Assembly: GCA_044892525.1 (NCBI GenBank)
Contig: CM097885.1
Location: 265,732,001 to 265,796,000 of the forward strand
Reading direction: 5' to 3'
From: Schmidtea polychroa
Lineage: Eukaryota
DNA length: 64,000 nt
Position numbers and translations under genes: made by a program. Of this stretch, positions 7,933 to 46,156 are shown in pieces. Position 1 is the first letter of the stretch. Every line of letters starts with the position of its first letter. A model generated the notes under the pieces. It was given only the letters and a program-made list of their open reading frames with translations, searched no databases and had not been told where the DNA came from.

Positions 7933-7995
<63 letters not shown>

Positions 7996-10100: not shown

Positions 10101-10132
10101 TTTTATTAATAAGATTTATTAAACTACATCGT

Positions 10133-10514: not shown

Positions 10515-10579
10515 AATAAATTGTTTCCATTGTTTAATTCATTTATACTACGTTTAAACCAATACAGTTTGAAATACTT

Positions 10580-11803: not shown

Positions 11804-12186
11804 TTTTCGAATATAGTTCCACGTCCTGTCATTCGTTTGTTTATATACCTTCGATGTTTTCTTCGCTTAGGCTGTGGTTCAGACTCTTCAGATTCTGATG
11901 CTTCATTTGATCCCATTACATTTGGTAATGAAGAAATCACATCTGGTAATGCCTCTTTGAATTCAGATATGGCATTGGATTTTAAAGATGGTAATATTTT
12001 TGCATTATTCATTATTACATCTTTAGCTGTTTTCATACCAAAATTTCCTATACGTTTAAGAATAGGAAGAGCAAACCGACCAATAGTTTTTAACCATCCG
12101 GATCCATATTGTTTGCCAACAAAATATGGTAATTCGCCACCAGTTTGACTATTGGCATAAAGAGAAACTATATCAGGATTAGACAT
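11800..12186 (-). CDS. Putative virion core/membrane-active protein (PZ-like), 128 aa
   Basis: QTGG, QYGSG and MTGRG glycine motifs, amphipathic GWLKTIGRFALPILKRIG, basic C-terminus; lies between the minor and major capsid genes. Confidence 0.75.
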   Translation of the reverse strand: MSNPDIVSLYANSQTGGELPYFVGKQYGSGWLKTIGRFALPILKRIGNFGMKTAKDVIMNNAKILPSLKSNAISEFKEALPDVISSLPNVMGSNEASESEESEPQPKRRKHRRYINKRMTGRGTIFEK

Positions 12187-14211: not shown

Positions 14212-14309
14212 TACAACACGATGATTTAAAATTTAGAATAAGGTTTGGTAAATGTCCCATAGGTAATTGACCCATTGTTTATGATGATGATATTAAAATA
14301 ATTCAACGT

Positions 14310-14642
14310 TTATGAAGGCTCACCTAATAAACCAGATCCACCTAATAAAGATAATGCGATTGGTATCAAAGCTGATATAAACCCCCCTTTCTGTTTGTAT
14401 ATAATTTTTCGCATTATACGTTTATTTTTTGTATTTACTAACGATAAAAGTGATTTTTTATGGTTTTGCAATACAAGTTTTTTCGCTTTACTAATGTCAA
14501 CATTGCCACGCACAACATTAACAATAATTTCAAGCAAATCGTCCACAACAAATTGTGGGAATGATTGTAAAATACTTGTTCTTTTCATGAGTGGTGCTTT
14601 TATCAATGCATTAAAATATGGTATACTACGTTGTAATTTCAT
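14310..14642 (-). CDS. Conserved Polinton small core protein (PW-like), 110 aa
   Basis: LLEIIVNVVRGNV...LQNHKKSL...QKGGFISALIP pattern with a QxGG cleavage-type motif before a hydrophobic tail. Confidence 0.75.
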   Translation of the reverse strand: MKLQRSIPYFNALIKAPLMKRTSILQSFPQFVVDDLLEIIVNVVRGNVDISKAKKLVLQNHKKSLLSLVNTKNKRIMRKIIYKQKGGFISALIPIALSLLGGSGLLGEPS

Positions 14643-14675
14643 TATTGAAATTTATTTTTTATCGTTTAACTTTGT

Positions 14676-14846
14676 TTATAATTTAATCCATTTTTTAGGT
14701 GTTTTGATTGATCTTTTCTTCAACGTTTTCTTTACAGATTTCTTTACTATCTTTTTTATAGATTTCTTTACATGTTTCTTTACACGTTTCTTCTTCACTT
14801 TGACTAATTGATTATCATGTTTAATTAAAACTTTCTTGAACCCCAT
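14676..14846 (-). CDS. 56-aa Lys-rich (H1/protamine-like) protein, below the ORF-track cutoff
   Basis: MGFKKVLIKHDNQLVKVKKKRVKKHVKKSIKKIVKKSVKKTLKKRSIKTPKKWIKL*. It fills the gap between the ATPase and PW-like genes on the cassette strand. Confidence 0.75.
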   Translation of the reverse strand: MGFKKVLIKHDNQLVKVKKKRVKKHVKKSIKKIVKKSVKKTLKKRSIKTPKKWIKL

Positions 14847-14870
14847 TTTTTATTATAATAGATTCATAAT

Positions 14871-15494
14871 TTAATTTTGTTTATAAACTGTTACACCATC
14901 TTTATTAAAAATATCTGTCCTAATACGTACATCATCCATGCATTGCTGAGTAAAATCAAAGAATAAATATCCATGGGGTATTTTGGTTGCATCTTGAAAT
15001 GATTCAATTAGAAAGTTACGATTGTTTGGATATGCTTGTCTTGCAATGAAATCAATAACAGTTGCATCCCTCGGATTTTTGAAAATAACAAGATATTGAA
15101 CATTCAAGTTCCGAGTTCGATGACTCCCACCCTGATGAAACAGATTTTGTGTTATAAAAATAACTGTTACACCATGATGTCGAGATATTTTTGTAAATAA
15201 ATTATTAAAATCTTTTTCTTTGTTAGCTTCTTGATATAAATCATCAATAATAATTACATCACCCTGTTGTAATCTAGATGACCAGTTTTTATCAAATCCT
15301 TTTATTATTGTCATTTTTAATTTACAGAATTGTTCTTGCGTCAAACCATGTTCGTCATCAGCACCCCTATGCCAATATATTTTATTGAATTTTGACTTGA
15401 ACATTTTTGATTGTAATAATTTACAAACAAATAAAGTTTTACCACTACCGCTTGGACCTACAATTTGATAAACAGCATCATTTCTTAATTCCAT
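14871..15494 (-). CDS. A32/FtsK-HerA-family genome packaging ATPase, 207 aa
   Basis: Walker A GPSGSGKT, Walker B IIIDD, SRHHGVTVIFITQ, R..LN.QY. Confidence 0.96.
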   Translation of the reverse strand: MELRNDAVYQIVGPSGSGKTLFVCKLLQSKMFKSKFNKIYWHRGADDEHGLTQEQFCKLKMTIIKGFDKNWSSRLQQGDVIIIDDLYQEANKEKDFNNLFTKISRHHGVTVIFITQNLFHQGGSHRTRNLNVQYLVIFKNPRDATVIDFIARQAYPNNRNFLIESFQDATKIPHGYLFFDFTQQCMDDVRIRTDIFNKDGVTVYKQN

Positions 15495-15579
15495 TTTAAA
15501 AAATTAGTTATATATATTAATATTGTTTATATTTGTTTTAATTCATCAGTTTACTTGATGAAAAATTATTTGAAAAAAT

Positions 15580-16044
15580 ATGATTAGTAATATAAATTAT
15601 AAAGGTAGATTTGATGTATCTCATATGGAATTTCCAAAAGGTAAACCACAACAAATTGTTGACAGAAGCGGTAAACATTCAATAATATTTTTCAAGTCAG
15701 GTAAATGTCGAATAATGGGATGTAAAAAATCGATCAAAGTTGAAGATTTAAAATATGAAATCAAGGATTTACAAATTCAATCGATTACAGTTACTGCTGA
15801 TATTGAATCAAATGTTATTTTAAATGATTTATCAAAGTATATGAAATGTATTTACGAACCAGAAATATTTCCGGCATTAAGATATATAAAATACAATCCA
15901 ATGTGTGTTAACATATTCAATAGTGGTAAAGTAGTTATACTCGGTATAAAGACATTGGATTATCATTTACTTGTTTATAAAATTATTAAAGATATTAAAT
16001 CAGTAATTGATGACATGGAATTTTTAAAATTTTTCCTAAACTAA
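15580..16044 (+). CDS. TBP: TATA-binding protein (TBP)-like protein, 154 aa
   Basis: Two TBP repeats: IIFFKSGKCRIMGCK, and IQSITVT...YEPEIFPALRY...VNIFNSGKVVILGIK versus canonical IQNIVGS...YEPELFPGLIY...LIFVSGKVVLTGAK. Confidence 0.9.
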   Translation: MISNINYKGRFDVSHMEFPKGKPQQIVDRSGKHSIIFFKSGKCRIMGCKKSIKVEDLKYEIKDLQIQSITVTADIESNVILNDLSKYMKCIYEPEIFPALRYIKYNPMCVNIFNSGKVVILGIKTLDYHLLVYKIIKDIKSVIDDMEFLKFFLN

Positions 16045-16153
16045 AGTTGCAATCGTCCATGCATGAATCCAATTGGTTGATGGTGTGTATCGAAATAAGT
16101 ATATATATATATATACAATAACACTTTAATCATTTATTAAGTACTAGTTGAGA

Positions 16154-16531
16154 ATGTCAAATTTAACTGTAAATGGTATATTTTGATTATTGCTTTTTAT
16201 ATTTATAATTTTAAATGTTTTAGAAAAAATGATACAGATTCTGATTGGGAAAATGGGGGAATTATATCCGAATATTTTAAAGGATCTAATCTATTGGGCA
16301 CCAGAGATTATTCCATTCAGAATATGGATGTCTACCGGAATAGATTTGAATGTGGTTTTGTTTGATCACTTGAGGACGTTAGAAGACGATCTTGGCCCTG
16401 TTGACAGCAGCAAGCCATCAGTATGCCCATACAAATGCGAAGGATGTATTGATAGAGAGAAGAAGTATAATATATGGATATTAAGGAAAGAGTTGAGAAA
16501 AGCTCACTTTTCATTAATTGTAGATCACTAA
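16154..16531 (+). CDS. ~109-aa unknown protein, predicted two exons (16154-16175, 16224-16531)
   Basis: ATG...AAT G|GTATAT-(48 nt)-TTTTAG|AA AAA ATG gives MSNLTVNEKMIQ in the frame of tracked ORF 16190-16531; contains CPYKCEGC. Confidence 0.65.
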
Positions 16532-16703
16532 TAAATGTTTAGTTATTATAATACAGTGTTTTCTAATTTTATATTGTTACTTGTGATAGTACACTAATTT
16601 TATGTTACATGTATTAGTATAATATTTTTAATATCACACTAATTAGTACACGTTTTAATTAACTAATTTGCAATACATCTGCAATACATATGCAAACCAT
16701 GTA

Positions 16704-16856
16704 TGACTCACATACAAAGGTCACAAATGTAAAGGTCACATACAAAGGTCACACACGAAGGTCAATGACACATGCATGTTGTTTGCAATACAAATGCATT
16801 CATTTGATTGGTTATACACAAGTATAAAAGAGAGATAAAATGACATCATAGTCATT
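16704..16856 (+). promoter_or_regulatory. Predicted Pol II promoter of the TIR gene (mirrored in the left TIR on the minus strand)
   Basis: TGACTCA 16704-16710; AGGTCA x4 (16718, 16733, 16746, 16759); ATTGG 16807-16811; TATAAAAG 16823-16830; TCATT with its A at 16854, 31 nt from the TATA start; ATG at 16868. Confidence 0.65.
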
Positions 16857-16867
16857 ATTTTTAAAAA

Positions 16868-17341
16868 ATGCAATCCAAGAAGAACGTTTTTGGTGAGAAA
16901 ACATTTTCTAATTTATTGAAAGAAACAAGCCCAATTAAGAAAATAACTGAGACGAAGCATGCCAAGAATGATGTGAAACCAGTACAAATGTATCATAACC
17001 ATAAGATATATTTCTTGGTAGACGAAATTCCATATAAATTCTCAAATGCAGTCAAATTGATCAAGTCGCAATATTCAAGTTTCATTGCTCATATAACAAA
17101 AGAAGATGTTGTTGCAGTAAATAAAGTGTTGGGGAAAATCAATAAGAATCTAAGTTGCAATGGAAATATAATCATCAACAATCGAAATTCTCGTTTTCAT
17201 GATGCCTTTGAAGAAATTGAATATAAAGATGGTGAAAGCTGGTTTGTAAATATTTCAATACAGGGATATAAAATGGATGAGAAAGATGTCATATCACCGA
17301 TTTGGAAATTAGATAGTGCTCGAATTTCTCTGGGATTTTAA
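16868..17341 (+). CDS. 157-aa TIR-encoded protein (copy 2)
   Basis: Translation identical to 3622-4095. Confidence 0.8.
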   Translation: MQSKKNVFGEKTFSNLLKETSPIKKITETKHAKNDVKPVQMYHNHKIYFLVDEIPYKFSNAVKLIKSQYSSFIAHITKEDVVAVNKVLGKINKNLSCNGNIIINNRNSRFHDAFEEIEYKDGESWFVNISIQGYKMDEKDVISPIWKLDSARISLGF

Positions 17342-19871
17342 TAAATGTTTAGTTTTTAATACATCTTTTAATATGTCTTTTAATATAATTATTTACTATG
17401 AGTTAAGTATAGATGATTAATTTGTATTTTTTAAAAGTTGAAAATATGTGTGTATGTAAAAGTTGGCTGAAAAATACATTGTTTAAGGTGTTATGATTAT
17501 GAATTTGAAGTAAATATTGATGTCATTTTATAGAGATTAAAATTCTATCTATATATTGTTTGAGTGAAAATATCTCAATTTGTTTAAAAAGATGTGTAAA
17601 TTTAAAAATCGTGTACTAAAAATGAAATTTCAGAATTTTGATTACATCATAGTCTCATTTAACAGAGAATTAAATTTCAAGTATAATGACATAAAAAATT
17701 CTTATAAAAAATTAAAATCAATGACGTAATCGATGTTTTAAAAAAATTTTAAATTATTACGTAATCGATGATTAAAACAAAAAATAAAATTATTACGTAA
17801 TCGATAATTAAAACAAAAATTTAAATTTAAAAAAAAAATANNNNNNNNNNNNNNNNNNNNNNNNNNNNNNNNNNNNNNNNNNNNNNNNNNNNNNNNNNNN
17901 NNNNNNNNNNNNNNNNNNNNNNNNNNNNNNNNNNNNNNNNNNNNNNNNNNNNNNNNNNNNNNNNNNNNNNNNNNNNNNNNNNNNNNNNNNNNNNNNNNNN
18001 NNNNNNNNNTGCACATGGATCTAGAGTGCACATAACTACCTACTATTATATATTCATGCATTGCTAATAATATTTAGAATTTGTGAAAAATGTTATAATG
18101 AAAATGTTTTTTTATTAACAACCTTGCCTTGGCGACGATGCCGTCTGGAAACCCCGAGTGTGATGGGTATGAAAAATATCAAATTTTACAATTATGATAT
18201 GAATTCCAACTATGCCATGACTTCGAAATGCCAGATTTATGCAGTGAGGGAGACGATATGAATTGCGTGCTCAGAGTAGTCACTTAAAGATTACTGTAGA
18301 GACATCAGCTATGGCATCACACTCGGATTTCAAAGGGCATGGTCGCCGGGTAAATTTATTTCATTTATTGTTTAATCATTAAAAGTAGACAATTTATAAC
18401 TACATTGAACATTCTGTAACAATATTTATGTTTTCATAACATTCATTTGATAATACTGTTTCGATTTTCACATTGCTTTATTATTATTGATAGTACACTA
18501 TGCGGTGTACTATGTCTATCAGGACGGTCTAGAGAACAGTCGGTAGGGATACCGGTCGTATCTGGATGGTCCTGGTGAGCGGAAAAGCCACGACTGTATA
18601 ATCCATCGAGTGTAATGGCAAGTGTTTTCATCGAGGAGCGATAGAAGTCGTTTTTCGCGAAAGATTTTGTAAATCCAAACGTCTTCAAATCTCATAGGAT
18701 TCCAGATTTTCTTACTAGACAAATTCCAAGTGATCTAGGAAAATTCCGTTCGATAAATTTGTTTCCGGGGCAGTCGTGGAATTCACCTTCATCGAATTAT
18801 AGAAAATCATCCATCTTTACTTCTTTGATCAGACGATCATTTTCTAATCGACTCGGAGAATCTGTATAATTTACGACCTAAATATTCCCAATGTTTAGTA
18901 ACAGTATTGTTTATAGCGATAGCCCAAATTCGATGTAGATTACGATCTGTAGGCAATAGCATCTCTGAATTCGCAAAGCATCGTCAGCGATTCAGGCACG
19001 ATCGACAACGATTGAATTTCGTCGATAAACAACCAGCTAGTAGAATTCCACTGCACGATTGTAATGAGATTTTCACTAAACAAAGAAGAAGATAATATAA
19101 ACAAATTAGAGCCAACGATCAATAGAATCGATTAAATCCGTCAGACTTGTTTATCCAACAGTATATGTCAATGTAAGCTCTCGTAGTAGACTGGAATTAA
19201 GAGAATCTCCTGGCAAAATGCAAATATTTACACGTCGCAGAATGTTAAGGCTCGGAGATGAATTTACCTAAATCAACTACACATTGACAAATTGAAACGC
19301 TTAACATAAATAATGAAAATTGACGACGAATAATATATCTACTATTGAAATAATTCAACTTAGAATCTCACATGAAAAATTTAGAATTAGTTCTTATTAT
19401 TTAAGTCTAAATATTTCAAAATCTAGAATTGGTTATTATTATTCAAGTACATTCAATACATAAAAACAATTAAAAATCGATTCGTCTAATAAATTAACTA
19501 ATAATGTAGATTTCTAAAGAAAATTTAGGCAAATAATGCAATTGATCAAATTTCACCCTAGTCGTAATCCCAGTGCTATTACGATAATGATTATGATTCC
19601 GAAAATTAAAAGGTTACTGTATGAGGGAAGGAATGCCTCTAAAGTTGAAATTTATACTAGCGGTCAGTGATCGGTCTTATCTACCATAATACGACGATTC
19701 ATTTTCTCTAACTACGTCCTTTTCTATAAATGTGTGAACCCAATCTGCCGCCGAAGGGACTCCAATCCTGTTTCTCTTGCGCAGATAAAAATTCCGATAT
19801 AAAAAAACTCCAAGAACACAATGGCACGCTGAAGAAGCGAATTGAGCATTACGAATGCACATGGTTCTTTC

Positions 19872-22800
19872 CAGTAGCGGATTTAGCTATAGGCGTGGGG
19901 GGGCGAATCGCCCCCCCCCCAAAGATAATTTTATGAATTTTTTCGCTTATTAAAGTTTTGTCTGTGTACAAAGTTCAAATGGATTTAAACAACTCCAGCT
20001 GTTATGCTGCATCATATTAATAATATTACATAGCTCCAGTGAAGAGCGACTGTTTGAAGTTTTTAAGCTTGTATAGTGTTTGTACATAAATCTAACCATA
20101 ATAATTATTGTCAATTTGGACTTTTTTGACAAACAAATTATTGCGTTACTATTGAAATATTAAAATAATATTCAATATTGAATTAAAATAAAATTTAAAT
20201 TATAGCCATGCTGAGTCAGCTGGTGATACTACTAAAAGCAAAGCAATTACCAAATTAAGTGGATCATCTAGGCGTAAATTGGCAAAGGAAGCTAGTCTCA
20301 AGGCAGATGCTAGCAAATATATTAAGTCAACATCATTTATAACTAAACAATCTAAACTGCCAGTAGTTCAATCAACTGAAGTTTCTGCTAAAAATGAGCA
20401 TGTATTTGATGATCAACACCCATCTACGCATTCGAGTTTCTGTGCTGAGCCTGCTGAGACAGAAACATAATCTGAAGTTCTTCTTGAAGATGAGCAAGTA
20501 GTTGATGAACAACACCCAGCTATACATTCATATGCAGAGAATATTGAGACGGTAACATTACCTGCTCAGGGCTTGAAACATAATCAGGGTGATTCAGAAT
20601 TTGATACAGCGGAAAAGCAACTTGTTTCAGATATTTTACAAGAACCACTTCTTCCTCAATCCGACTTTCCTACAGATCCAGGACTCTACATTAATACAAG
20701 CATAAGCTCGAAACTGATACGAAAATTGTTTGAAATCGGACCATGTCAACCTGGACTCAATGAACCATTTCAATTTCCGACAGATGAATTGGGGCGCAAG
20801 TTTCAAATTTCTTGGTACACAAAATTTTTTGGAAAAGTTAGTATGAAGGAGGAAAGAAATAGGCTTGTCTATTCACCAACAAATCAAAAAATGCATTGCC
20901 AAGCTTGCTAGTTATTCGCTGATTGTAAAACTGAAAATAATAGCAAGGAATGGTCCGACCCAAATTTTGGAGTTTATAACTGAAAAAAAGGCATGGAAAA
21001 AATCGTTAAACATGAAACTTCCAATCAACATCAAAGTGCAATATGTCAATATTTGCTTGCTAAATATCGCATTTCAAATGATAAAACTGTGATATCTGGT
21101 TTGATCAGTCAGGAGCGTTATCAAGTGGAATAAAATAGAGAAGTTTTGAAACGAATGGTAGATGCAACGTTGTTTTTAGCAAAGCAAGGTTTGCCATTTA
21201 GATGACACAGAGAACATTCTGGCTCTGACAGGTGTAGTAATACTGGAAGTTTTCGTGAATTGCTATTTTTATTGGCTAAATATGATTCCACTTTGGACAA
21301 TCATCTAAAGTTTGAAAAGAAAAATGAACTTTATTTATGCCATGATGTACAAAATGACCTAATTCAATCACTTGCCTCAGAATTATCCGCAAATATTGAT
21401 AATAAAGTTAAGTTTGCACAATTCTTTTCTCTAATTGTTGATTCAACAATTGATATATCCAGAGTTGATCAGATGTCAGTTTCTTTAAGATTAGTGTTAA
21501 AATCAGGACAAGTTGTTGAACGATTTATAGGCTTCTACACGTTGGAAAACAGTAATGCTGCAGCATTTTCTGATATATTATTAACGGAGTTACAAAAGCA
21601 AAACATTGACATTACACTTTGCAGAAGACAGGCATATGATGGTGCCTCTGTGATGTCTGGAATTAAAAATGGTCTTCAAACTAAGATAAAGACACTTTCA
21701 CCAAATGCCATCTTTGTTCACTGTTGTTCTCATGCATTGAATTTGGTGATTATTGAAGCAATGTCTCTTAACAGTGATGTTCAGTTGTTTTTTGGTACAA
21801 CAGAAAAGTTGTATACTTTCCTTACATCAAGTCTACCACGACTACATATTCTCGAAGAACATCAGAAGTCTCGATATGAATCGACAGTAGATACTCTAAA
21901 ACGACTTTTTGATACAAGATAGGCAAGCCGAAAGCATGCAGTTGATGCAGTTGTTGGATCATTCTCCGCTATTATATCTACTCTAGAAGATATAATTTTT
22001 GGGGAATCAAAAGAACACAAAGGAAGTGTCAGAGCAGAAGCTATGGGACTATCTATTTTGATAACAAAATATTCTTTTGTTTTTCTGATGCTATTTCTAC
22101 AAAAGCTGTTACATAATATCTTTGTGTTATCAAACTATTTGTAACGAAAGGACGTTGATATTGCGTTTGCAAAACAATTGATTTATGTTGCCAGAAATAA
22201 GTTTGCTGATATGAGAAATGATAAAGCTTTTGAAAGTCTAAATGTTGCTGTAAAATCATTTATTATCAAAAATTGTTCCTTACTAGATATTGAAACAGAA
22301 TTTAAAGAAAAGCGAGTTTCAAAAAGGAAACGCATGGCAGGTGAACTTAACAGAGATGAAAGGGTTGATGATCCAACTACACGCATCAAATGTGAAACGT
22401 ATTTCACTGCCTTGGATACACTTGTAACACAACTAGATGAACGTTTTAATGATTTTCATAACATTGTTGCTTTATTCTCCTGTCTTGATCCATCACAAAT
22501 ATCAGAAGAAAATAAAGAATCTTTTCAAAATTTATGCGACATTTACAAAAATGATATTAATATTGAAGAAGCAATCCTAGAATATGATACTTTCAAATAC
22601 GTGTATGCATCAATACGCCCATTAATATCTTGTGAACTACAACTTAAATAGGTACTACCTTTCTTGGTTGAAAAACAGATGGCACCAGAACTTCCCAATT
22701 TGGCAATTCTCTATAAAATATACTTGACTCTTCCTGTTACATCTGCTACTGCTGAAAGAAGTTTCAGTAGACTGAAAATCATCAAAAATTATTTGCGATC

Positions 22801-23886: not shown

Positions 23887-23985
23887 ATGGAGATGATTGC
23901 TAAATCGTGGAAATTACCCAAGCGAGTCTGTCTGAGCATGCGAATGATTTGTCTTTCTTTGTTTCTTCCTCTTGGGTAACCAACA

Positions 23986-24753
23986 CTATGCTATTAGATC
24001 TCCCAGTCACCTGACACCCAAGCGCTGCTTTATTAATTTCGTCTTTATTACTTAGTCTCGGCGAACTGATTGTTTGGGCTAGTTTCTTTGATACCCATTG
24101 ATCTCGTACTGGAGTTATCGACCTTTATCTTTTCTCGGCATTTGCGGCAAATACTTCAGATTTTCCGGTACTTTTAAAATTCAATTCAATTTTCATGAGT
24201 CTTTTCACAAGTTCATCGAAATTCGAAAAATCCACGTAGCATAGTGCTTTTTTATTTCAGGAAGGCTCCATTTATAAATTGATTTAGAAGCAGTTTTCTG
24301 ACTTGTTTTACCATCTCAACTTATTCAGGCTTTGCTTCGAAGGCTTTGCTAAAGTCGTTAAATAGTATGCGTATTCACTTACCGATTCATTTGGATTTTG
24401 CACTCTGGCATAAAACTTTTGTCGCATTATCCTTTGAATATCGCCTACCACCAATTTCATTGCCATAGCGTCTTTGAGTTTGGCCCAATCATTTCCAATT
24501 GTCTTTTTATCCACTTGCTGCCAAGCTTCTCTTTGGGCTCCTTTGAAATAGAATGGGAATCTTTGTACCATAATGGCTTGTGCCACCCATAGGCCGAAGC
24601 GTACATATAATAATTTCCCATGAAATCAGCAAACTCAACCGCGTCTCCTCCATACTGATTCACAGGTAATTTTTGATAACTGGCAAAGTCTATCATCTCG
24701 GCGTTCTCTCTGGCCATCTTTATTGTTCGATTTCTCAGATTATATTCACTCAC
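23986..24753 (-). pseudogene. gag: gypsy-like gag, 5' part (frameshifted ORFs 24457-24753 and 24308-24586)
   Basis: KLPVNQYGGD...YASAYGW...QRFPFYFKGA...QNPNESVSEYA; homologous to 29337-30376. Confidence 0.85.
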
Positions 24754-24886
24754 TGCTAAATAATAAAATTAATAATCAATAATTACTACCTCTTTCAATT
24801 TTCCCGATTTCTGATTATTTTCAAATTTTATTAATTTAGTTTTCTTAACCTCTTTTTACTATTCAATATTTACCCACCAACGTTTG

Positions 24887-24904
24887 ATCACATCGGGTTC
24901 ACCA
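24887..24904 (-). promoter_or_regulatory. Primer-binding site, tRNA-Trp type
   Basis: TGGTGAACCCGATGTGAT versus the canonical Trp PBS TGGTGACCCCGACGTGAT (16/18), next to an LTR end ...CCCAACA. Confidence 0.85.
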
Positions 24905-24969
24905 AAAATATATGTTGGGTTTTATGATATTAAAAATCAACCGTTGGTTACTCTGACTCAACGTGTTCC

Positions 24970-26327
24970 AAAAATTAATAAACACAACTTCCAACGTATA
25001 TTTGTTTTTTAGAATTTCTTAAACCTTTAGATGAACACCTCAACCAGTTCGGGAAAAAACCTCCGTCCTTGCTTTTCCTGCGCGGATAAAAATGCCGATA
25101 TCGCACAGCTACACTTATACATCGGGGAGTTAAAGAAGAGAATTGACCTTTATGAAGGAACGTGGTTCTCCCCACCACAAATGAAGGAGGAGAAGAGCAA
25201 AATTCTACGTTAGGAGCACTGCCGTGACAGTCTCCTGGAAGAAAGCAGGTGCCAGAGGCTAACCATAAAAGCCCAATCAGAGGCACTGCACAAAGTGTAT
25301 TCTGAATCAGAAATAGCGAAGCGAGTTCGTGAATATCCAATGCAAGATGGGACTAACGTGTTCCCAGGACACCACCAGTAAGCTGAAACATCATCAACAA
25401 CTAGCTGTAAGGGGCATGGCCTACAATTGACGCCAATTCCCGCCCCAGTTCTTTCTGGTTATCGGTCTATGACCGGCGGTCCATCGGACCCTATCTTGGC
25501 CCCACTCCTCGTGCCTCACCTCACTCAACCTCCAGTAAAAGCCACATTGCCACATCGAAAGCGTAAACGGCTGACGCGCTCTGAGAAAAATCAGAAGCGT
25601 AGAAACGCAATGGCCGCCCTTGAAGCATCCTTGTCAGTGGCACAATCCAAAATTAATGAAATAACCTCCACGCATTCAATTACCGCCAAGGAGATCTTCA
25701 AAATAATTCCGGCAGAGGGGATTAAATATGAGGCCGATCAGTACTTACCTGTCGACATCGACGAGATGCTTGCCGAAGGAGAAGCATTCTCGTAATAAAC
25801 TTTCCCATCGGTCCCGATCATCCTACCTTATGCATGGACTCGAAGAATTTGACATTTATCTTGTGCATGTTCTTAAATGTTTTATCATTATCCAAATAAT
25901 ATGGACTGTCTTGTTATGTTTATCTTAAATACAACTGTTTGATTTCTTTGACTGCGTTAGTAGTATATCTGATTGGCTGTGGTTGATTGGAATGGAAAAG
26001 TGATCCTGAAGGTATAGTACGAGCTTGAATGTCGTCCCTTTGGACCAGGGTCGGACTGAATTATGCGTGTAAAATGGGTAAGACCTTCTAAGGCACCATG
26101 GAACCCGAACCGAGAAAGGGTTAGAAGTAGTCCTAAGGCAGGGGCTCACCTGCTAATTTTTTCCAACCCGTGTGAGCAGCACCAACGTGGAACGTCACCA
26201 CGGGCTCATACGTGGGAATATGCTAATGATCATTTGGTGTATGTGAGGGAATAGTCTGAGCAGAACCATGATACTTGAGATGTATGATAATCATGTATGT
26301 ATATTTTCTTTCCCACATACGCCAACA
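24970..26327 (+). mobile_element. 3' part of multi-kb LTR (copy B)
   Basis: CFSCA ORF homolog and structured motif (26119-26211); ends CCAACA at 26327. Confidence 0.75.
26119..26211 (+). ncRNA. Conserved structured RNA motif, copy B
   Basis: GGTTAG/CTAATT stem; GTGTGAGC/GCTCATAC; AGCACCAA x G loop; CGTGG/CCACG. Confidence 0.6.
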
Positions 26328-26397
26328 TTTATATAAATATTTCTTCCATTTTTATTGATTTATTTTTTAATTTAATTGTAAAATAGTCATTGGCGAC

Positions 26398-27630
26398 ATG
26401 GATAAAAATAAAAAAATAAAACTTTCTGGTTATGAATTTATGAAAAAAAGAGAGGAAAAAGAAAAGAGACACGAAAAAGATAAAGATAGTCTCCTAAAGT
26501 TTTTATTCAATCCCACTGCCTCTATAAGGAATGATATGGACTTACAACCCTCAACTTCAAATAGCTCTGCAATTAAAGTTGCAGTTAGTAATGCAGTTCA
26601 GATAACTCGTCAAGAAAATTGTGTAATTGAGGAAACTTATCTGGATTTGGATCAGGACTATGACAGAAATAGATTTCATGATTTAGTAATCACTGACCCT
26701 GGTACATGGCCTATAATGAAAGATGAACTCCGGCAGATGATTATTAAAACGAATATAGGACATATTGAAAATAATACTTTCCCAGCTGACAAAGACAACA
26801 GAAAATTCACGACATTTCATTATCAACGAAAATTATGTAATGGTGAAAGTATGACAAGAAAATTGTTGCAATAATCGTTAGATAAAGATCGTGTTTTTTG
26901 TATTTGCTGTAAACTTTTCTCCTCAACTGCATCAAATTCATCATTAAATGACAGTGGAAGCTATGATTGGAAGAATCTGGCAGCACAGCTTTCAATGCAT
27001 GTAAAGAACGCTAAACAAGTCGAATGTTTCCAACTATGGTGAGAATTGTAGATGCGTCTTATAACAGAACGTACAATTGATCAATCCCAATTAGCCATAA
27101 TTAAAGAAAAAGAAAATTATTGGCAAAACATCTTGGAAAGATTGATTGATTTAGTACGGGTTCTTGGGTAACAGAATTTGCATTTTCGTGGGAGTGGAGT
27201 AGAACAATTAAATTGCCCCCGAAATGGAAATTTTTTGAAATTAATTCAATATTTTGGACGGTACGACCCTATTATGAAGGAACATTTAAGAAAAATTACA
27301 AGTAATGAAGTACATGTTCATTATTTATGGAAGAATATTCAAAATGAATTGATGCACGTACTTTTTGAAGCAATAATTAACAAAACAATTGAACATGTCC
27401 GTCAGGCAAAATATTATGCAATAATCCTCGACTGTACACCGGATGCAAGTCATGTTGAACAGATGACCATGTTAGTACGTTTTGTGGACATGGATAAACT
27501 GCAGCATTCGGAAGTCTTCATTAGGGAACATTATTTAGGTTTCATTCCTATTAAATCTTCTAGCAGAAACTTTAATAAAACAATTGAAACATTTGTCATT
27601 GGATGTTCAAATGCAATGGACGTAATATGA
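26398..27630 (+). pseudogene. Truncated hAT (ZMYM1-like) transposase relic
   Basis: DPGTW, RNGNFLKLI, YYAIILDCTPDASHVEQMT; broken by stops and 3'-truncated; no TIR seen. Confidence 0.8.
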
Positions 27631-30600
27631 AGTAATATTTCTCAGTTTACTTTGAGTCTTTCTGTTTTTTCTCCTCTTGAAATTTCTGTATTATTTTACA
27701 TCTTATTTCATACAAATTTCTGCATTATTTTTCTTTAATGTTATTATCACTCGTCATCTTGGTCATATATGCCTCATTTTTAACTTCAATTTTTATCTCA
27801 TTTTCAACAATAATCTGCTCCGCTTCATTTTCTATTTCATCTTTTTCAGTCTTCATCTCATTTTTAACAATAATCTCTCCAGTTTCATTTAATATTTCAT
27901 ATCTTCTCATTTCTTGTTCATCGTGCGTCTCATCATCATTACTCATTATCTCATTTTTCCAGTTTGGTAATTCCATTTTAAAGCTTTCTTCTACTTCCTT
28001 TAATTCCCATTGTTTCGCCGCAACTAATTCAGTAATAAACTTTCCTGATTCGTCAAAGATTCATTTTCATCAAATTTTCGTGGTACGCAGCCACAATCAA
28101 ATAAATACTTATCATCATCTAACTCAAAACCTTTATATGTCAATACAATTATTCCATCATTGCCCATAATTTCTGCTGCTCTTCGTCGTATTTTACTCAC
28201 TTTCGTACAACAATGCTCGTTGGTACATTCCATTTCTTGATCGTTTACTTTTAACATTATTACGAATGGCTCAACATAAACTACTTTTCTCTAAATTCCT
28301 GCCCAATTTTTTGAATAAGCGTTTTTATTATTTCACTATATTCATTATCATAATTTACATAATTTACTGATCCAATCTAAAATTTTTAATTTATCTTCCA
28401 CCTCATATTCTAAATTCAAAATATCATTTTATTTATTAATAATATCACCTGTATCTCCCTTGATCAATGCTTCATTTAATTCAAATTTAATTTTATCGAC
28501 ATCATATTTGACTGGTTTTTCATTGGTAATCATGCTCATTATTTGTATCTCATTTTCAACACCGGGGATCAATCCACAATCTATCAAAAGTTCGTCGTCT
28601 TCCAACACCCGATTCATAAATCTAAGTTCTACTGCCCAAACTTCACATTTGTGCATTATTTCTCTTTTTAACTCGTGCACCTTTTCATATGCTTCAATTT
28701 GATACTCGAATTTGGTGCCACCTGATGCATTTGTTTTAATAAATATCGGGTCTAACCATTTCAATTTTCGTAGAGTTTGGCCAAATTCTTTCATATACTT
28801 TTCAAATACATCTCGCTTTTCCACACTTGCTGCATAACATTTCGTACAAAGTTTAATAACAGTTTTAATTTTTGTTAAACTCAACGGTTTTTCCTTTAGC
28901 TTCATTAACACTTCTATCAATTTCTGAAAGTTTGCGTTAGGTTCTGTTACTAATTTTCTGGCCTTAGCAATAAGTATTGTACTCTTTTCACTTTGCATAT
29001 CCGTTTTAACTCTGTTTCTTTTAACATCATCAAGTTTTGATTCATCTGTCTTCACCTCTCGTCTTGTCATCATATGAGAATCTGTTTCTTCATCTGATTC
29101 AAATTTTGCTATCAATTTATTCAATTTTTGATTTAACTGTTTAACATCGTTCTCGATTTTTTCTCTAAATTTATCTTTCTGAACATAAGCAACGTTATTC
29201 TTTGATTGGTTTTCATCTTGAAATCTAATTGTTCGTTTCAAAATCGGTCATTGAAATTTATCGGAATTCCTGGGACAAGATCTTGCAATATGCCCGTAAT
29301 TTCTGCATAAATGACATTGAATTTGTCCATTTAAATTCATATTATCTCTTTGTGGTGATGGTGATCTATCACACATCCTTTTCTATCAGAGCGATAACAT
29401 TTTACCTCATTAAAATTTGACTTTACATTAGGAATTGCTCTTCGAAAATTCGTTCCTCTATCATCTCTACGCCAATCGGGACCCGATCTCCTGGGTACTC
29501 TTTCAGAATTATTTTTAAACCAACACTGATTTGTATAATGGCCAATTTTCTTACAAATATCACACTGAATAACTTTAGCTCTCTCAGTGCCTGGTGAATT
29601 TTGGCTTGCTCTGTTCATATTATTATCGTTTCTCCATTTGGGTGATGGGCTCTTTGATCGTCGAAATCTATTTCCTGATTCCCAATTACCTTGAGTTGGG
29701 GTTATTGATCTCTCTCTTTGTACTGGAATTATTGCAAATACCTCAGATTTATTTTTAGAGCGCTTTAGATTCAATTCGATTTTTATAGCCTTTTTAACTA
29801 GTTCATCAAAATTGTCATAATCTACAAAACATAATGCCGTTTTTATCTCTTTATTTACTCCGGACGAAAATTGATCTTGAATCAGTTCCTGGATCTGTTG
29901 GATTAATCTTGGTTGTTTCGAATCTTCTTCAAAGGATTTACTGGCAAAGGTGGATAAATTATATGCAAATTCGCTCACTGTTTCATTTGGATTCTGAACT
30001 CTATTATAAAATTTCTGACGCATTAATCTCTTTATATCTCCTCCAATAAGTTTAGCAGCCAAGGCATCTTTTAATTTAGCCCAATCATTGCCGATTGTTT
30101 TCCTGTCGATTTTTGCCAAACCTCTTTAGCTGCTCCTTTAAGATATAAGGGTAATCTTTGAATCATGATTGCTTGAGACCATCCATAAGCCGTTGCATAC
30201 ATATAGTGATCACTCATGAAATCAACAAAAGTAATTGGATCTCCTCCATATTGCTCTACTGGCAATTTTTGACAACTGGCAAAATCATTATTTTCTTTAA
30301 CAACTGAAACTGGTAAATCTTCACTGCTCATTATCTTTTCCTTTTTACTCTGGCTCCGAAAATAATATGGGTTCACTTTAATAAATTATTTCGTTTTCAA
30401 ATTGCACAAAATCTAAATCTCAAATTATTATTATAATAAATAATTTACCCTTTTCAAAAATTCTTTTATAATTTCAATTTACCACAGTTTATTTTCACAA
30501 TTTTCTTTTTCAACAATCTCTTCACCAACTTTTGATCACGTTGGGCTCACCAAAATATGTTGGGTTATTGAGTTGGGGATAGAATTAGAACTCTTACTCT

Positions 30601-31032
30601 GACTCCAAGCGTGTCTTTGACTGCCACACAAATAACAATTAACACTGGAAACTTTATTGAATATCACAAATATTTTCACAATGATATAATTGACTCAACA
30701 AGCTAACTATTATAATGTGCTTATTACAACACAATAGTGAGAAATAGCACACTCGTATAACTTTGATTTGTCAAACCTCTCACAACTGAGGAGTGTAATA
30801 ATTGGTAATTTTAACAGGTTTTTTCTCTGATTTTGACTTGGCTTTACTCTTCTAACTTTACTCTATTATCAACTGAATTAACTCTATCTTTTCTTCTCCT
30901 GCTTATGCTGTGCCACCTCCTTTTATACCTTGTAAATTTATGGCAAGTGTTTTCCCATTTTCTTTCTCCTGATTTCCCCGACTGTCCCATTTTTATCTCT
31001 GACAGCTGTCAAGTTCTTTTCCCTTTTTAACA
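27630..31032 (-). mobile_element. gypsy-like LTR element copy 2: 5' LTR (30558-31032), Trp PBS (30535-30552), broken gag-coiled coil-UBL-UBL ORF, no pol visible
   Basis: LTR termini TGTT/AACA; PBS TGGTGAGCCCAACGTGAT; ORFs 30071-30376, 29337-30119 (CDICKKIGHYTNQC), 28429-29241, 28024-28257, 27725-27976. Confidence 0.8.
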
Positions 31033-31107: not shown

Positions 31108-32037
31108 TTAACTACATACTCGTAGACAGATGATAACTGAGCACGATATTGATGGGCATTCTCTTCTGTTGTGTCCAATATCTTTACACGCAAAACATCT
31201 CATCTCTGCATTCTGTGCTCTCTGATTGCACTCTCTGGATTGGTGCCCTTCTTTTCCAGATTGGGAGCATTTCTGAACCCTTGGTTTCCGACATTCTTGA
31301 CTCATATGACCCGCCTCCTGACAATTCCAACATATAATAACTGATCTATTTCTAACCGGCATTTCTCTTTTTTGGAATCTGTTCTGGAAATTATCGGCTT
31401 TCATCCTAGGTGTTAAATCATATCTGTCTTCTATTCGTTGTGAACTTGTAAAAGTTCTGCTTTGGTTCTGTCTATCGGCTAATCCTTGTCTTATCTTGAC
31501 AATACTCGCAAACGCTTCCTTCCTTCTATTCAAAATTGAAATTCCATATACTTCAATGTTTATATCATCGACCTTCTTTATCACTCCTTTTATTTCGTCG
31601 ACGCTCATCGCATCTCTCATCATTATTTCTTTCTGTGTATCCTTGCCTTTGATATAATGGACCAAAAAATATGACATTAATTCTTTCTTGTCCCATTTGT
31701 GCTTCAGAACCATCTTTTCTATTTTTTCGAAATATACTCGGGGTGTATCCTCGTTTTTTTCATAATTGCAGAGGGTTAGAAAATCCCCTATCAACGTCGA
31801 TGGTTTCTTGAAAGCCTTTTTCAATCTGTCTACAAAACAAATTTCATTTTCTTCTATTGCTTCATAAATTGGCAACAACTCTCTTGCGATCAAACATTTG
31901 ATCATCATACTTTGGCTGGATTGTTCTAGTCCACATACTTGGAAATACCTCTTGCATTCTCCAATAAAAACGTCTACATCGACGCTGCCATCGTAAATAT
32001 CCGGGATCATTTTATTGATCATTGCCAGGGTCGCCAT
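31108..32037 (-). pseudogene. gag: gag of a different LTR retrotransposon (three CCHC-type knuckles), 3'-truncated
   Basis: CWNCQEAGHMSQEC, CSQSGKEGHQSREC (degenerate), CFACKDIGHNRREC. Preceded by a PBS-like TGGCGACCCTGGCA (32023-32036). Confidence 0.85.
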
Positions 32038-32256
32038 GTTAATATTAACCAGTTAGTAATTTACAAATATTTATTTTTAATACAAATACAAATTATTGCC
32101 TAACTCTGGTATTATTAAAACACCCGATTTATATGGCGAATTAATTAATTAATTAATAATGCTAATTATGCGTACCAGCATTTATACTTATTATACTTTT
32201 ACTTATAATACAATATATATTTTATTTATAAATTAATTATTTAAATATCCCTAACA
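32037..32256 (-). repeat. Candidate short LTR (~220 bp)
   Basis: TGTTA...TAACA termini directly abutting the PBS-like sequence. Confidence 0.55.
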
Positions 32257-35207: not shown

Positions 35208-37420
35208 CAGTGGTTCTCAAACTTTTTTGATCACGACCCAAATTTTTGACATTTCATGCCAAAAATTTTATTGCGACCCACATGACAAAGATTAATTTTA
35301 AAATAAATGTTTATTTAATGAGATGAATGTAGTTGCTTAAGTTCAAGTATTTTTGACATCCTTGGTGAATAATTTTTACTCAAACATATTCGAAGATCGT
35401 TTGAAATATTGAGTTGGTTTCTTTGCTTTGTCTTTATTTGAACCAATTTACTAAATCCAGATTCACAAAGCCATGTAGATGTAAATGGAATAAGAATTTT
35501 CATAGCTAAATCTTTCAAGTTATAATATTTTTGTGATATATTGCACCAAAATTTCAACAAATCAACTTCATGAAAAAATTTTTTCATATTAATATCTGAA
35601 TTTAAATCAATTATTTCTTCGATAAATTCGTTTTTTAAAGAAAATTTTGTTGATAAAATTTCTGTACTAAAAGGATTTGAAATAAGCAAAACAATAGTTT
35701 CTTTTGAAAATAGACTATGAAAATAATCATTGAATTTAACAATCAAAGCATCCAAATGATTAAAAATTATAATTTTGATGTTATCAGAATTTTCATAATT
35801 TTTCAATTCTTGAGAAAGTTTTGGAAAAATATTGAAGTCGTTTTTAACAATACATTCTTTCCAAAAATATATTTTGTTAATAAACCCCTTTAATGAAGAA
35901 AATGATTCAATAATTGTTTTTTCAGAGCCCTGAAGTTGTAAGTTTAGTTGATTTAGTTTTTCAAATATATCACAAAGATATGCAAATTTCAAAATCCAGA
36001 AGAAATCATTAAATTTGGTTGCTAGTTCTGGTTTTTCACACTGCAAAAAAAGTTCAACTTCATTTTTCAAATCAAACAATCGATTAAGCACTTTTCCTCT
36101 TGATAACCAGCGCACATTGCTGTAATATAATAAATTTTCGTATTCAGAATTCATTTCACTACAAAGCAACTTGAAAAGTCGTGATTTTAATGGATTTGAT
36201 TTTATAAAATTTACAATTTTTATAATATCATTCATAACAATGTCCAATTCTTGAGATAAATCGTTGGCCACCAATGCTTCTCTATGAATTATGCAATGAT
36301 TCCATTCAATATTTGGTGATTTTTCTCTTATAAATTTCATCAATCCAACATTTTCCCTGTACACGACGAAGCTCCATCCGTACAAACTTCAATACATTGA
36401 TTCCAATTTAACTGATTTTTTTCGAAGAATTCATTTAATAATCTAAATATATCAATTCCTTTTGTATTTGACGCAAAATTTTCATGAAAAAGAAAATTTT
36501 CCACAATATATTCATTGCAAATATATCTAGCAAAGACTAGCAGATTAGATTGATTAGAAATATCAGTTGATTCGTCAAGTTGGATTGCAAAGTATGGAGA
36601 TTTTCTAATATCAATTAAAATTTGTTCAGATAAATCAGCAGAAATATCACTTATTCTTCTACGAATAGTATCATTAGATACAGCTATGTCATTTAATTTT
36701 TCCGATTCTTTTTCACTAAACATTATTGATGAAATTTTTTTCATTGTAGGCATTAAAAAAGATTCAGCAATATTATGGCTCTTCATATGTTTAGCGATTT
36801 CATAAGCAATAGTATATGATGCTAATGTTGATGTTTCATTTTTCGAAGTAAATTTCAATATTGCATTTTTTTGATTCGTCAATAACTTTTTCTTTTCTTC
36901 AAAAATACTTCTTGGAGAATTAACAAAATCAGGATGATTTGTTTCTAAATGTCGTTTTAGTTTACTTGGTTTTAATGATTCTGATGATAAAGTAACTCCA
37001 CAAATTACACACTGAGGTTTATTTCCATTATTACAAAACCCAAAGTCTATGAAATTTTCATTAAAATTACAATTTGCAGATTTTTGGTTTGAATTAGACA
37101 AGCTTGGAGATTTCATTTTAAGATTATTGAAACAAAATGAGATGGATGGATAGAAAATTTTTTCACTTTGCAATGACCCCTGCTCAACTTTAAATGGCTT
37201 AAATCGAAATTTTTTGAAATTAACTCTTATTATTAAAAAATCAAAATAACAATATTTAAGAAAATAATAAGCGTTCTAAATATTAATTTATATAAATAAA
37301 TTTAAAAGGCTTAAACTTCCAAAATTTATATTTGTAGATCTTTCCATAAGTCATCGCGACCCACCAAAAATTCTTTCGCGGCCCAAAAATGGGTCGCGAC
37401 CCATAGTTTGAGAAACACTG
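35208..37420 (-). mobile_element. hAT Charlie/Buster (SCAND3/ZBED5-like) transposon; transposase has one frameshift
   Basis: TIRs CAGTGGTTCTCAAAC / CAGTGTTTCTCAAAC. ORFs 36340-37173 and 35315-36385 (QLDESTD, TDGAS, HCIIHREAL, VRWLSRGKVL) join by a 1-nt shift near 36351-36354. Confidence 0.92.
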
Positions 37421-43711: not shown

Positions 43712-46156
43712 CAGGGGTCTCAAACTCAAACTGGCCTGCGGGCCGCATTAGACTAGTATCATGAGCAGGCGGGCCGCAACATAAATAATTGTTTTCCAGA
43801 ACATGTGAAGTCTGAAACACCGACGTTAATATTTATTTAATTAAAAACTCAACAAAACTAAAAAACATTTTATTTTAATATTTTAGCATTCATTATACTG
43901 CTTTCTTACATTAAAATACTAAAATTAATGTTACTGTGAAATCAATCCATGTTTTGCCCACTTACCTGGCATCGTTTAGCATCAACCAAGGCATCAATGT
44001 TAGGTTTAATGTCCTGTGATGAAACCAGTCTTAGAGATGCTTGCAGATGTTCATCAGTAAGCCTAGATCTTAATGGCGATTTGATAATTTTCATGGAAGA
44101 GAAAAATTGTTCGCAAACATACGTACTTCCAAACATTGCTATCATCCTTGCAGCAGCAGAAAGTAACATAGGAAACCTTTCTTTTGAAACAAACTGATAA
44201 AATTCTAGAATTCCAACATCTGAATACTTTTGCTTCAATATGGAATCACACTGAAGATCTACTAATTCCATCTGCAGTTCCTCTGCTATATTTTCAATCT
44301 CAACGGCGAATGGTGTTGCAAAAAGCTGAAAATGTGGTTCAAGTGCCTTAAAATCGTTAAAACGTAAAACAAATTGTTGATGCAAATCTGAAATTATATC
44401 TGCATATTCTTTCAGGGATTGGTTTTCGACTTTTCCTAAGGAATTCAAAGTTGAGAAATGGGCTAAGTTGCCTACAATAAGCTGTCTTTGAAATAAAGAC
44501 AATTTGACTTTGAATGATTTAACACTGTCATACATCTGTGTAATGACTTGTCTTTTGCCCTGAAGTTTTAAATTTAATGCATTCAAATGACCAGTTAAAT
44601 CTGTCAGAAAGGCAAGGTCGCAAATAAACTTGGCATCAGTAAGCTGTGGAACCTCATTCTTTTTGAGTTTCATGAAAGAATAAATCTCTTCTCTAAGTGC
44701 AAAAAAACGATTCAGCACATTTCCTCGACTCAGCCATCTAACTTCGGTCTAATAAAGAATTTCCCGATATTCGCTTTCTATACTTGCTAGGAAAGAAGTG
44801 AACTGTCGGTGATTTAAGCCTCGTGAACGTATAAAATTGACCGTTTTCACAACCACATCCATGACACCCATCATTTTAATACTTTTGCTACAAAGAGCTT
44901 CTTGGTGCACAATGCAATGTAAGCTAGTGAAATTATTATTTGGTATATTGAGGCTTTGTAGTTTGGTCTTCACCAATCCAACAACACCGATTGTTTGTGA
45001 ACACATAGCTGGCGCTCCATCCGTGACCATTGATACAAGTTTGTTCCATGGTAATCCAGCTTTTTCAAGACAATCTTCCAATCCTTTAAATAAATCACGT
45101 CCCGTTGTGGTATTCTTCAATGGTACCAAGTCTAGAAATTCTTCCGTTACATTAAATTTACTGTCCACTCCTCTTATAAAAATTGCGTACTGTGAAGTAT
45201 CTACCAAATCAGTACTCTCATCAAGAGCGATCGAAAATGCTTCAAAATCTCCAGCCTTTTCAATAAATTGTTTTTTCACATTATCTGCTAAATCGGTTAT
45301 TCTGCTTGCAACTGTATTAGCAGACAGACTTATGCTTTCGAATAGTTTCTTTTTATCAGGAATTAAAATTTCGCTGGCCTTCAAAAAACATTCTTTTATG
45401 AATGGACCTTCTGTGAAAGGTCGCGATGATTCAGCTATCATCAGGCTTAGCTCAAAACTTGTTTTTACTGAATTTTCTGCAAATTGGCTTAAATTCGAAA
45501 AAAAGTTTCGTTGCTTATCAAATCCTATTTTAAGCTGGTTAACTTTTTCATCTCGAATTTTTCCAGTATATTTATCATATTTTTCACGATGCATAGTGTC
45601 GTAGTGCCGGCGAAGGTTGAACTCCTTTGGTACTGCGATAGTCTGCTGGCATATAAGGCACTGAATTTTATCTCTCGCCTCTGTGAAAAAATATAAATTC
45701 TCCCACTTCTCTTGGAAAACCCTTCTTTCATCAACGAGTTTTCTTTTTCTAGATAACGAAGTCATTTTGTGATGGGTATAAAAAATTTTAAATATGCCAA
45801 TTATTTGTTGATTGAAATAACATTAAATTAAAATAAATAAAAATTTAAATTATGTAAAATATATGTATTTTTAATATAACTTATATTTTTTTAATTTTTT
45901 TAATTTAAATAATAAAATCAATAATTTTTAAAATAAATAAACTGTTTTCGATAAGATTCATAAGGAAGATGTAATAAAGCCATTATTAAATTGTACTAGA
46001 CGTCATATGTATAAATAAAAATAATTAAAAAGAGTAGTTTTAATTTATACAGCCAATTATGATTTTAATTGTTAAATAAGTTTGGTTAAATTACAAATCT
46101 ATGTTTGTTCGTTGCGGGCCGTATGCGGCCCGCGGGCCGCGTGTTTGAGACCCCTG
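43712..46156 (-). mobile_element. hAT transposon (GTF2IRD2/SPIN-like), nearly intact
   Basis: Perfect 14-bp TIR CAGGGGTCTCAAAC and perfect TSD ATCTAGCG. A ~607-codon transposase (45765-43942) is broken only by one in-frame TAG at 44749-44751 (ILY*TEVRWLSRG). Confidence 0.96.

Follow-up and report, generated by a model that had tools for sequence, protein, structure and literature searches.

Predicted ubiquitin-like modules, duplicated and under purifying selection, in the polyprotein of an env-bearing Ty3/gypsy element of Schmidtea polychroa

Why should the Gag protein of a retrotransposon carry ubiquitin-like domains? The question is raised by a 64,000-nt stretch of the Schmidtea polychroa genome (assembly GCA_044892525.1, contig CM097885.1, positions 265,732,001–265,796,000), referred to here in its full length as the window, in which an initial annotation had described a Gag open reading frame (ORF) extended by ubiquitin-like domains (UBLs). 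Folded accessory domains taken from a host are, as a rule, not known from the Gag proteins of Ty3/gypsy elements, and the annotation was right that this is not a standard gypsy feature. The quoted residues are present as described on the minus strand, which carries the features of the element, and what survives at positions 27638–30750 is almost certainly the 5′ end, broken off, of a Ty3/gypsy element that bears an env, occurs in many copies, and encodes a Gag-UBL-UBL-Bcl2-Env-Pol polyprotein. The two UBLs, each preceded by a helix bundle, may serve as non-conjugated, particle-borne binding modules whose partner, from the host or the element, would be contacted away from the Ile44 surface, a reading drawn from sequence and predicted structure to which a probability of roughly 45% can be given.

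The architecture is seen in natural copies of the family in the 781-Mb source genome. A search with the focal copy gave 1,389 candidates, of which 150 were scored, all 150 matching, and a search based on a sister element in the window scored 150 of 965 candidates; identity bands separate at least five subfamilies, A (that of the focal copy), B, C (that of the sister), D, and E. Six full-length natural copies of 14.4–16.5 kb have long terminal repeat (LTR) pairs of 0.92–1.17 kb that are 98.2–100% identical (14 locus pairs examined), and a primer-binding site (PBS) and polypurine tract are present in four of the four natural copies examined. A single ORF of ~3,330 aa (open frames of 3,329–3,346 aa in natural copies) encodes, from the N- to the C-terminus, Gag with three zinc knuckles, two modules of a helix bundle and a UBL, an acidic linker, a Bcl-2-like domain, a hydrophobic segment, a class III fusion glycoprotein, a membrane anchor, protease (PR), reverse transcriptase (RT), RNase H (RH), and integrase (IN). 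In locus L031, a single frame, of which the locus holds 2,791 aa, leads from Gag to integrase and matches Pfam domains in the order zf-CCHC, ubiquitin, Bcl-2, Monjiviricetes_fusion, PR, RT, RH, and IN; the Env match between Bcl-2 and PR is to PF24664 (E 6e-89 and 2e-91), and Env identity between subfamilies is 73%. Because the one ORF runs on to Pol, the UBLs lie in the middle of a Gag-Env-Pol polyprotein and are not a Gag tail, so that the picture of a Gag ORF merely extended by UBLs has to be replaced. The in-frame association with Gag itself stands for the family: among the 28 best-scoring A loci, a set that leaves out the window copy and its twin (see below) and is biased to window-like copies, knuckles and UBL1 share one frame in 13, knuckles, UBL1, and UBL2 in 10, and the whole stretch from the capsid to the Bcl-2-like domain in 6. 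The Bcl-2-like domain matches Pfam at E 3.6e-4, under the cut-off, and 23 of 23 PDB matches of its profile are to Bcl-2 or Bcl-xL (E 0.002–0.01), which is weak but consistent. Between its BH2-like motif and the start of Env, the hydrophobic segment is found in five of five subfamilies.

Both UBLs are predicted beta-grasp domains. AlphaFold, given 585 residues of a natural copy and 14 sequences, models them at a mean pLDDT of 65 (mostly 73–86 per ten residues over the UBLs), with two beta-beta-alpha-beta-beta units and four helices ahead of each; the Foldseek check that bears on the proposed fold places di-ubiquitin chains and ISG15 on top (E 4e-7), and VIA-align superposes UBL1 on ubiquitin with Z 12.5 at 1.2 Å over 72 residues, RAD23 and DSK2 UBLs being further close structural matches of the predicted fold. 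All ten aligned family members match Pfam ubiquitin, one of them above the cut-off (best 27.8 bits against a cut-off of 25.4). In the window copy, UBL1 (28525–28752) starts with IFIKT at 28746 within an open minus-strand frame at 29247–28432, and matches Pfam ubiquitin at residues 168–227 with E 3.4e-4, under the curated cut-off; its matches to ISG15 and RAD23 are weak, and its score against host ubiquitin beats 1000 of 1000 shuffles. The similarity of single domains to ubiquitin is mostly weak, with three of 11 compact-family domains at ≤9/1000 shuffles. Length-limited, word-indexed protein searches gave no match at E ≤ 0.001, and the ESM Atlas offers a lead only, with a best score of 0.80 and ubiquitin/Rad60 clusters at 0.76–0.79. 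A genome scan with ubiquitin itself returned 150 scored matches, many of them paired 219–228 bases apart in long frames and some near-intact; these pairs appear to be a second, much younger ubiquitin capture in the source genome.

Each UBL is part of a larger unit. Profile comparison of module 1 with module 2 (hhalign 94%, E 9e-8, 80 columns) indicates that the modules are duplicates of one unit of helix bundle and UBL. In the window copy, the first half of module 1 is helix bundle 1 (28755–28995, four predicted helices), and UBL1 is followed by helix bundle 2 (28275–28512), broken by a stop at 28429–28431 and a frame change at 28361–28284 and weakly alike to TFIIS-N/LW over the whole domain, and by UBL2 (28019–28269), the beta-grasp duplicate of UBL1, whose last strand lies in another frame after a change near 28057. 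Compared alone, the two helix bundles are not similar by hhalign (0.5%), and their kinship is read from the matches of the whole modules and of the one-module relatives. Such relatives come from a HMMER scan of 1.84 billion proteins with 15 matches: P0007, P0008, and P0016 are long Gag proteins with a single helix and UBL unit that matches both module profiles across helix and UBL, P0007 also has a Bcl-2-like domain, and P0003 and P0004 have two units. P0016, from an ENA contig, combines Gag, one module, a class III Env, and four protease-like repeats, and the module is present in unrelated metagenome contigs. Four of the 15 matches (P0011, P0013, P0015, and P0017) were not considered further, as they belong to generic proteins of the poly-UBL or TPR kind.

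The helix bundle, modelled with pLDDT 85 from an alignment of 10 sequences from the source genome, has no PDB sequence match below E 0.05 and no Pfam match. In a wide VIA search, seven of the top 50 rows are TFIIS-N (TND), LW, or IBD domains; the best TND-type row, 7faw (Z 8.9, 2.4 Å, 79 of 84 residues), is tied with HEAT-type repeats, at 4–16% identity. The likeness of the predicted bundle to TFIIS-N is a lead and not a result. TNDs bind short acidic motifs, and the IBD of LEDGF binds lentiviral integrase. If the repeat unit were a TFIIS-N bundle of the LEDGF-IBD or Elongin A type joined to a ubiquitin fold, it could mimic host elongation-factor modules and either hold the complex, on its entry, at chromatin under transcription or titrate TND-binding factors; one to three copies would be made per Gag and freed in the particle, they would be needed even by pol-less parasites, and the Bcl-2-like neighbour would keep the cell alive. 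On the modelled fold this is quite improbable.

The pattern of substitution speaks to whether the modules are used at all. Pairs that involve A or B have a saturated dS, and the comparisons were therefore confined to C, D, and E and to pairs inside one subfamily. Between C and D, pairwise Nei–Gojobori omega is 0.13 for UBL1 and 0.07 for UBL2, with 0.06 for the capsid, 0.04 for Env, 0.28 for the Bcl-2-like domain, and 0.39 for the linker; the uncorrected pN/pS, with bootstrap intervals, is 0.24 (0.15–0.37) for UBL1 and 0.15 (0.07–0.25) for UBL2, with 0.09 for the capsid. The acidic, low-complexity linker (27700–28016 in the window copy; pLDDT < 50) is the least constrained part, with a pN/pS of 0.50. 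The UBL intervals exclude 1 in C-D, C-E, and D-E. Both UBLs are under purifying selection, which is the outcome of the dN/dS check that had been suggested for them. The second unit had been described as the more diverged, and UBL2 is indeed further from ubiquitin; between subfamilies it is the better conserved of the two, with 80% identity versus 69% for UBL1 in C-D and 57% versus 44% in A-B.

A captured host sequence that stays in frame by chance would also look open, as the frame must remain so for Env and Pol and stops are purged anyway. Here, however, amino-acid changes are purged too, with intervals that exclude 1 in three subfamily pairs, and the module has been duplicated and retained, recurs in unrelated metagenome contigs, and is open where Pol is gone. 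A neutral passenger, which retains almost no probability, is refuted by the selection test.

The copies without Pol are two independent derivatives of ~9 kb, with LTRs >99.6% identical, that lack Pol entirely, together with the ectodomain of Env, and retain Gag-UBL-UBL-Bcl2 in one frame (1,323 aa in subfamily E and 1,404 aa in an A-type derivative). Among collinear E copies, replacement and silent changes number 2 versus 7 and 4 versus 8 in the two modules, with pN/pS of 0.07 (0–0.27) and 0.13 (0.02–0.43), and two A-type derivative copies compared with each other give 0.39 (0.20–0.78). Because selection persists in the pol-less derivatives, the modules are used in cis and not just tolerated as an open frame before Pol.

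Use in cis could be structural: the modules may form a matrix-like or spacer layer that joins the nucleocapsid end to the membrane anchor and aids folding or assembly of the precursor, with no host partner. Their place, behind the knuckles and ahead of the first membrane segment, and their production equimolar with Gag agree with this, as does selection on the modules in the pol-less derivatives, which have no evident need other than packaging; the conserved residues are mostly those of the fold core, and an element may have a single module, two, or probably three. A plain spacer, however, needs no ubiquitin fold held at a pN/pS of 0.15–0.24 when the acidic linker (0.50) already supplies length, and neighbouring domains in the clade are of the host-control kind (Bcl-2, RING-MATH, ankyrin). 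A purely structural role is therefore rated as somewhat unlikely, while it deserves a serious place among the alternatives.

What kind of partner the UBLs could engage depends on their surfaces, which were mapped by alignment to host ubiquitin for 10 domains from five subfamilies. The domains share only 13–23% identity with host ubiquitin, and for this reason the donor gene cannot be named. The C-terminal Gly75-Gly76 is missing in all 10, as is any basic LRLR-type tail behind the last strand; the window UBL1 likewise has no Gly-Gly. Because the Gly-Gly tail is absent, the aligned UBLs cannot be conjugatable, which bears out the earlier prediction. In pestivirus polyproteins, ubiquitin inserts serve as processing signals. 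Host deubiquitinases might similarly cut behind each UBL and release the polyprotein parts, and it speaks for this that the UBLs sit in a polyprotein that must be cut and that pairs of near-intact ubiquitin units occur within long frames of other elements in the source genome. The loss of both the Gly-Gly and the LRLR-type tail in 10 of 10 domains, together with the element's own aspartyl protease, makes such a processing signal very improbable.

The Ile44 patch is the surface read by most ubiquitin receptors. In the aligned domains, position 44 is K or N in five of five UBL1 (R in the window copy) and T in four of five UBL2, I44 being retained in one of 10; L8 is retained in two of 10, the V70 position is hydrophobic in all 10, and positions 63 and 68 are P and N, respectively, in all 10. 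The conserved residues (L50, D52, and L56) mostly belong to the fold core. The alignment suggests that the UBLs probably avoid the patch on which most ubiquitin receptors rely. The UBLs resemble type II UBLs (RAD23, DSK2/ubiquilin, the ISG15 tandem, and Elongin B) in having, by their predicted fold, a beta-grasp without a conjugation tail, and differ from them in the large loss of the Ile44 patch and in the pairing of each UBL with a four-helix bundle.

These substitutions bear on a further possibility, already raised by the initial annotation, namely that the UBLs are a built-in ubiquitin signal for ESCRT recruitment, for proteasome docking in the manner of RAD23 or ubiquilin, or for use as a receptor decoy. 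The predicted fold is close to ubiquitin and to the RAD23 and DSK2 UBLs, and the element is enveloped by design. According to the accessible text of PMC2958808, a Gag fusion to ubiquitin without Gly-Gly can take over from a late domain, and budding through such a fusion required both L8 and I44, which are mostly lost here. These engineered fusions share with the planarian element a ubiquitin fold without Gly-Gly behind Gag, as far as the accessible part of PMC2958808 describes them; they are artificial and need L8 and I44, whereas the element has an altered patch and carries the domain internally. Position 68 is N throughout, and a YPxxxL motif, conserved in four of four full-length subfamilies, could supply the late function instead. 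Because the Gly-Gly tail and, for the most part, the Ile44 patch are absent, canonical ESCRT or proteasome engagement is disfavoured, and a built-in ubiquitin signal of any of these kinds is distinctly unlikely. The YPxxxL motif (residue 1781 of the L031 ORF and its equivalents) lies in the interval between the Env anchor and the protease and is, from its sequence, a candidate ALIX-type late motif.

The preferred reading, that the modules bind a partner through a non-Ile44 surface, would work as follows. The modules would travel with each Gag molecule; the hydrophobic segment past the Bcl-2-like domain would anchor the Gag precursor and double as an internal signal for Env, so that Gag, both modules, and the Bcl-2-like domain would be cytosolic and made one to one. 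The element's own protease would then free the modules, which, together with the Bcl-2-like protein, would become particle-borne accessory proteins acting on a host partner, and the best lead to that partner may be the TFIIS-N-like helix bundle.

Several points weigh against this proposal and hold its probability below one half. It draws on sequence and predicted fold, and selection shows use and not its kind, so that a spacer or assembly role fits equally. No RNA run was listed among those holding the module, which speaks neither for nor against its expression. Intervals include 1 when the A-type derivative is compared with a full-length copy (0.46, 0.19–1.19, and 0.47, 0.21–1.04). The mapping of Ile44 is a sequence alignment at 13–23% identity. 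At E ≤ 0.001, Foldseek finds no match for the helix bundle, and the Z of 7–9 that it reaches in VIA is also typical of common helical arrangements. The Bcl-2-like domain has no clear BH1 match and is recognized from sequence profiles only, and P0016 has Env yet no Bcl-2 match.

The remaining parts of the polyprotein and its derivatives add further detail. Past the integrase, a hydrophobic segment, ~300 residues without Pfam match, and a C-terminal membrane anchor (L048 3–2264, L073 2–1822, and L068 1–2028) probably make up a second surface protein, and both pol-less derivatives fuse this post-integrase part to the Gag-UBL-Bcl2 frame. Family A has a separate accessory ORF downstream of the polyprotein that encodes a DEDD exonuclease (RNase_T, E 2e-6; L048 2421–3959 and L034 2081–2989). 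Derivative E is a recombinant (L069 807–2910 versus 2918–4947): its LTR (98.8%) and gag start (92.5%) are like C, and its UBL-Bcl2 block is only 68% so.

The copy in the window is itself decayed, with 91.7% identity to young copies. The 3′ part of its 5′ LTR (30555–30750, ending in CA at 30558) was placed by blastn against both LTRs of family-A copies, which also identifies an extra LTR scrap at 30946–31028, the LTR being interrupted by other DNA; the PBS (30537–30552) starts with TGG five bases past the LTR end, and four other copies have the same motif just behind their 5′ LTR. The beginning of Gag and its capsid domain lie at 29750–30331 (Pfam Retrotrans_gag E 5.5e-4, and tblastn), with a frame change near 30110. 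Two zinc knuckles had been read here, and two are intact (the first at 29564–29523 and the third at 29316–29275, within 29275–29564); the family has three, and the middle one is damaged in this copy. The first residues of the Bcl-2-like domain (27638–27699; blastn end, with Bcl-2 matches on natural copies) close the copy, which is cut at 27638, a few codons into that domain, so that the window lacks its Env, Pol, and 3′ LTR. The continuous ORF that had been assumed does not exist in the window: frame changes near 30110, 29367, 28361–28284, and 28057, and stops at 29248–29250 (between the last knuckle and UBL1) and 28429–28431 (between UBL1 and UBL2), divide capsid, knuckles, UBL1, and UBL2.

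A 99.9% identical twin of the window copy (L001, G000:C1:265691145-265694513) lies ~67.8 kb upstream and is either a recent segmental duplication or an assembly duplicate. Directly upstream of the focal 5′ LTR pieces is an unrelated gag (31108–32052, zf-CCHC E 1e-10), and hAT/ZMYM-like transposase remnants (DUF4371, Dimer_Tnp_hAT, and zf-BED) occupy 21206–22651, 26371–27630, 35315–37275, and 43942–45822, one of them adjoining the cut end of the focal copy.

The diverged sister element, reported earlier with the same domain at ~505–735, does carry UBL1 at 732–504. It belongs to subfamily C (255–1514, minus strand, 89% to L067), comprises knuckles, helix 1, UBL1, and helix 2, and runs past the window start, its UBL2 lying just outside (L077 9977–9800). 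Its 5′ part, with LTR end and gag start, is found at 23985–25011 on the minus strand, where L067 1803–2826 maps; as L067 2822–4081 maps to 1514–255, both pieces are one element, the gag of which is divided by ~22.5 kb of nested insertions (1514–23985). Nested inside is a Maverick/Polinton at 2955–18044, with long terminal inverted repeats 99% identical, which encodes a 1,408-aa ORF, an integrase with chromodomain, and an A32-like ATPase.

How much of this is already known? In the accessible text of PMC6431247 (Arkhipova and Yushenova 2019), planarian Burro/GYPSM1 has a 4,873-aa ORF with Gag, MATH, a Ubi2/SUMO-like motif (PF11976), BCL-2, and an env that sits in frame after gag and before pol; the authors suggest that it meddles with apoptosis and ubiquitination. 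The present element shares with Burro, as described there, the single polyprotein, the three-knuckle Gag, and the order of ubiquitin-like motif, BCL-2, and env in frame between gag and pol. It differs in size (14.4–16.5 kb and an ORF of ~3,330 aa, versus ~30 kb and 4,873 aa), in having two modules where the accessible part of PMC6431247 names one motif, and in the second membrane protein of no known family behind the integrase of the compact element. No Pfam match to MATH, ankyrin, or BIR was found in the scanned polyprotein parts and downstream ORFs, and the same scan finds ankyrin and RING-MATH in a 30-kb element; the dUTPase-like region between PR and RT, detected in Burro by HHpred according to the accessible text of PMC6431247, has no Pfam match on L031.

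That 30.0-kb Burro-type element of the source genome (L078, L079, L088, and L089; G000:C1:260793-290807) has UBL-like segments before Bcl-2, ankyrins past the integrase, and a separate RING and MATH ORF, and its RT is 58% identical to that of the compact element. Of these segments, the one next to Bcl-2 is a homologue of module 2 (14.8 bits versus a maximum of 3.8 in 200 shuffles). The first two segments are not above shuffles against the module profiles or ubiquitin; they show motif likeness by eye and one PI3K_rbd match (E 0.008), so that three UBL-like segments are probable on sequence grounds.

Flatworm GAG-ENV-POL errantiviruses with an HSV/gB-type env, six of them from S. mediterranea (Smed_errantivirus_1–6), are described in the accessible parts of PMC13524379 (Chary and Hayashi, eLife), and gene order, class III env, and size (listed intervals of 14.5–18.0 kb) are alike; compared by eye over its first 100 residues, the env row of Smed_errantivirus_1 shares 76 with family A. 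In the parts of that paper at hand, the main text has no mention of ubiquitin, Bcl, polyprotein, or Burro, and seven supplementary files have none of ubiquitin. PMC8532177, PMC11410931, and PMC13238120 mention Burro without domain detail in their accessible text. Our literature search found only PMC6431247 naming a ubiquitin-like motif in such an element, and the supplements of Grohme et al. 2018, Repbase, and GyDB may say more. Because its size and MATH/ankyrin features do not fit, the element is not filed as Burro; sequence comparison, with Burro1–4 compared by description only, suggests a compact Burro-like, gB-type GAG-ENV-POL element. The overall layout, close relatives, and, in outline, the ubiquitin-like cargo are thus already in print; what was not found there is the duplicated helix and UBL module, the variation in its number, the evidence of selection on it, the loss of the Ile44 patch, and the retention in pol-less derivatives.

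For the biology of these elements, a cargo noted once in the giant Burro becomes a conserved, duplicable module of helix bundle and UBL across a clade of env-bearing elements from planarians, and non-autonomous copies too keep it under selection. With its two small modules and many young copies, the compact form makes the question of ubiquitin and apoptosis raised in the accessible text of PMC6431247 testable on isolated domains.

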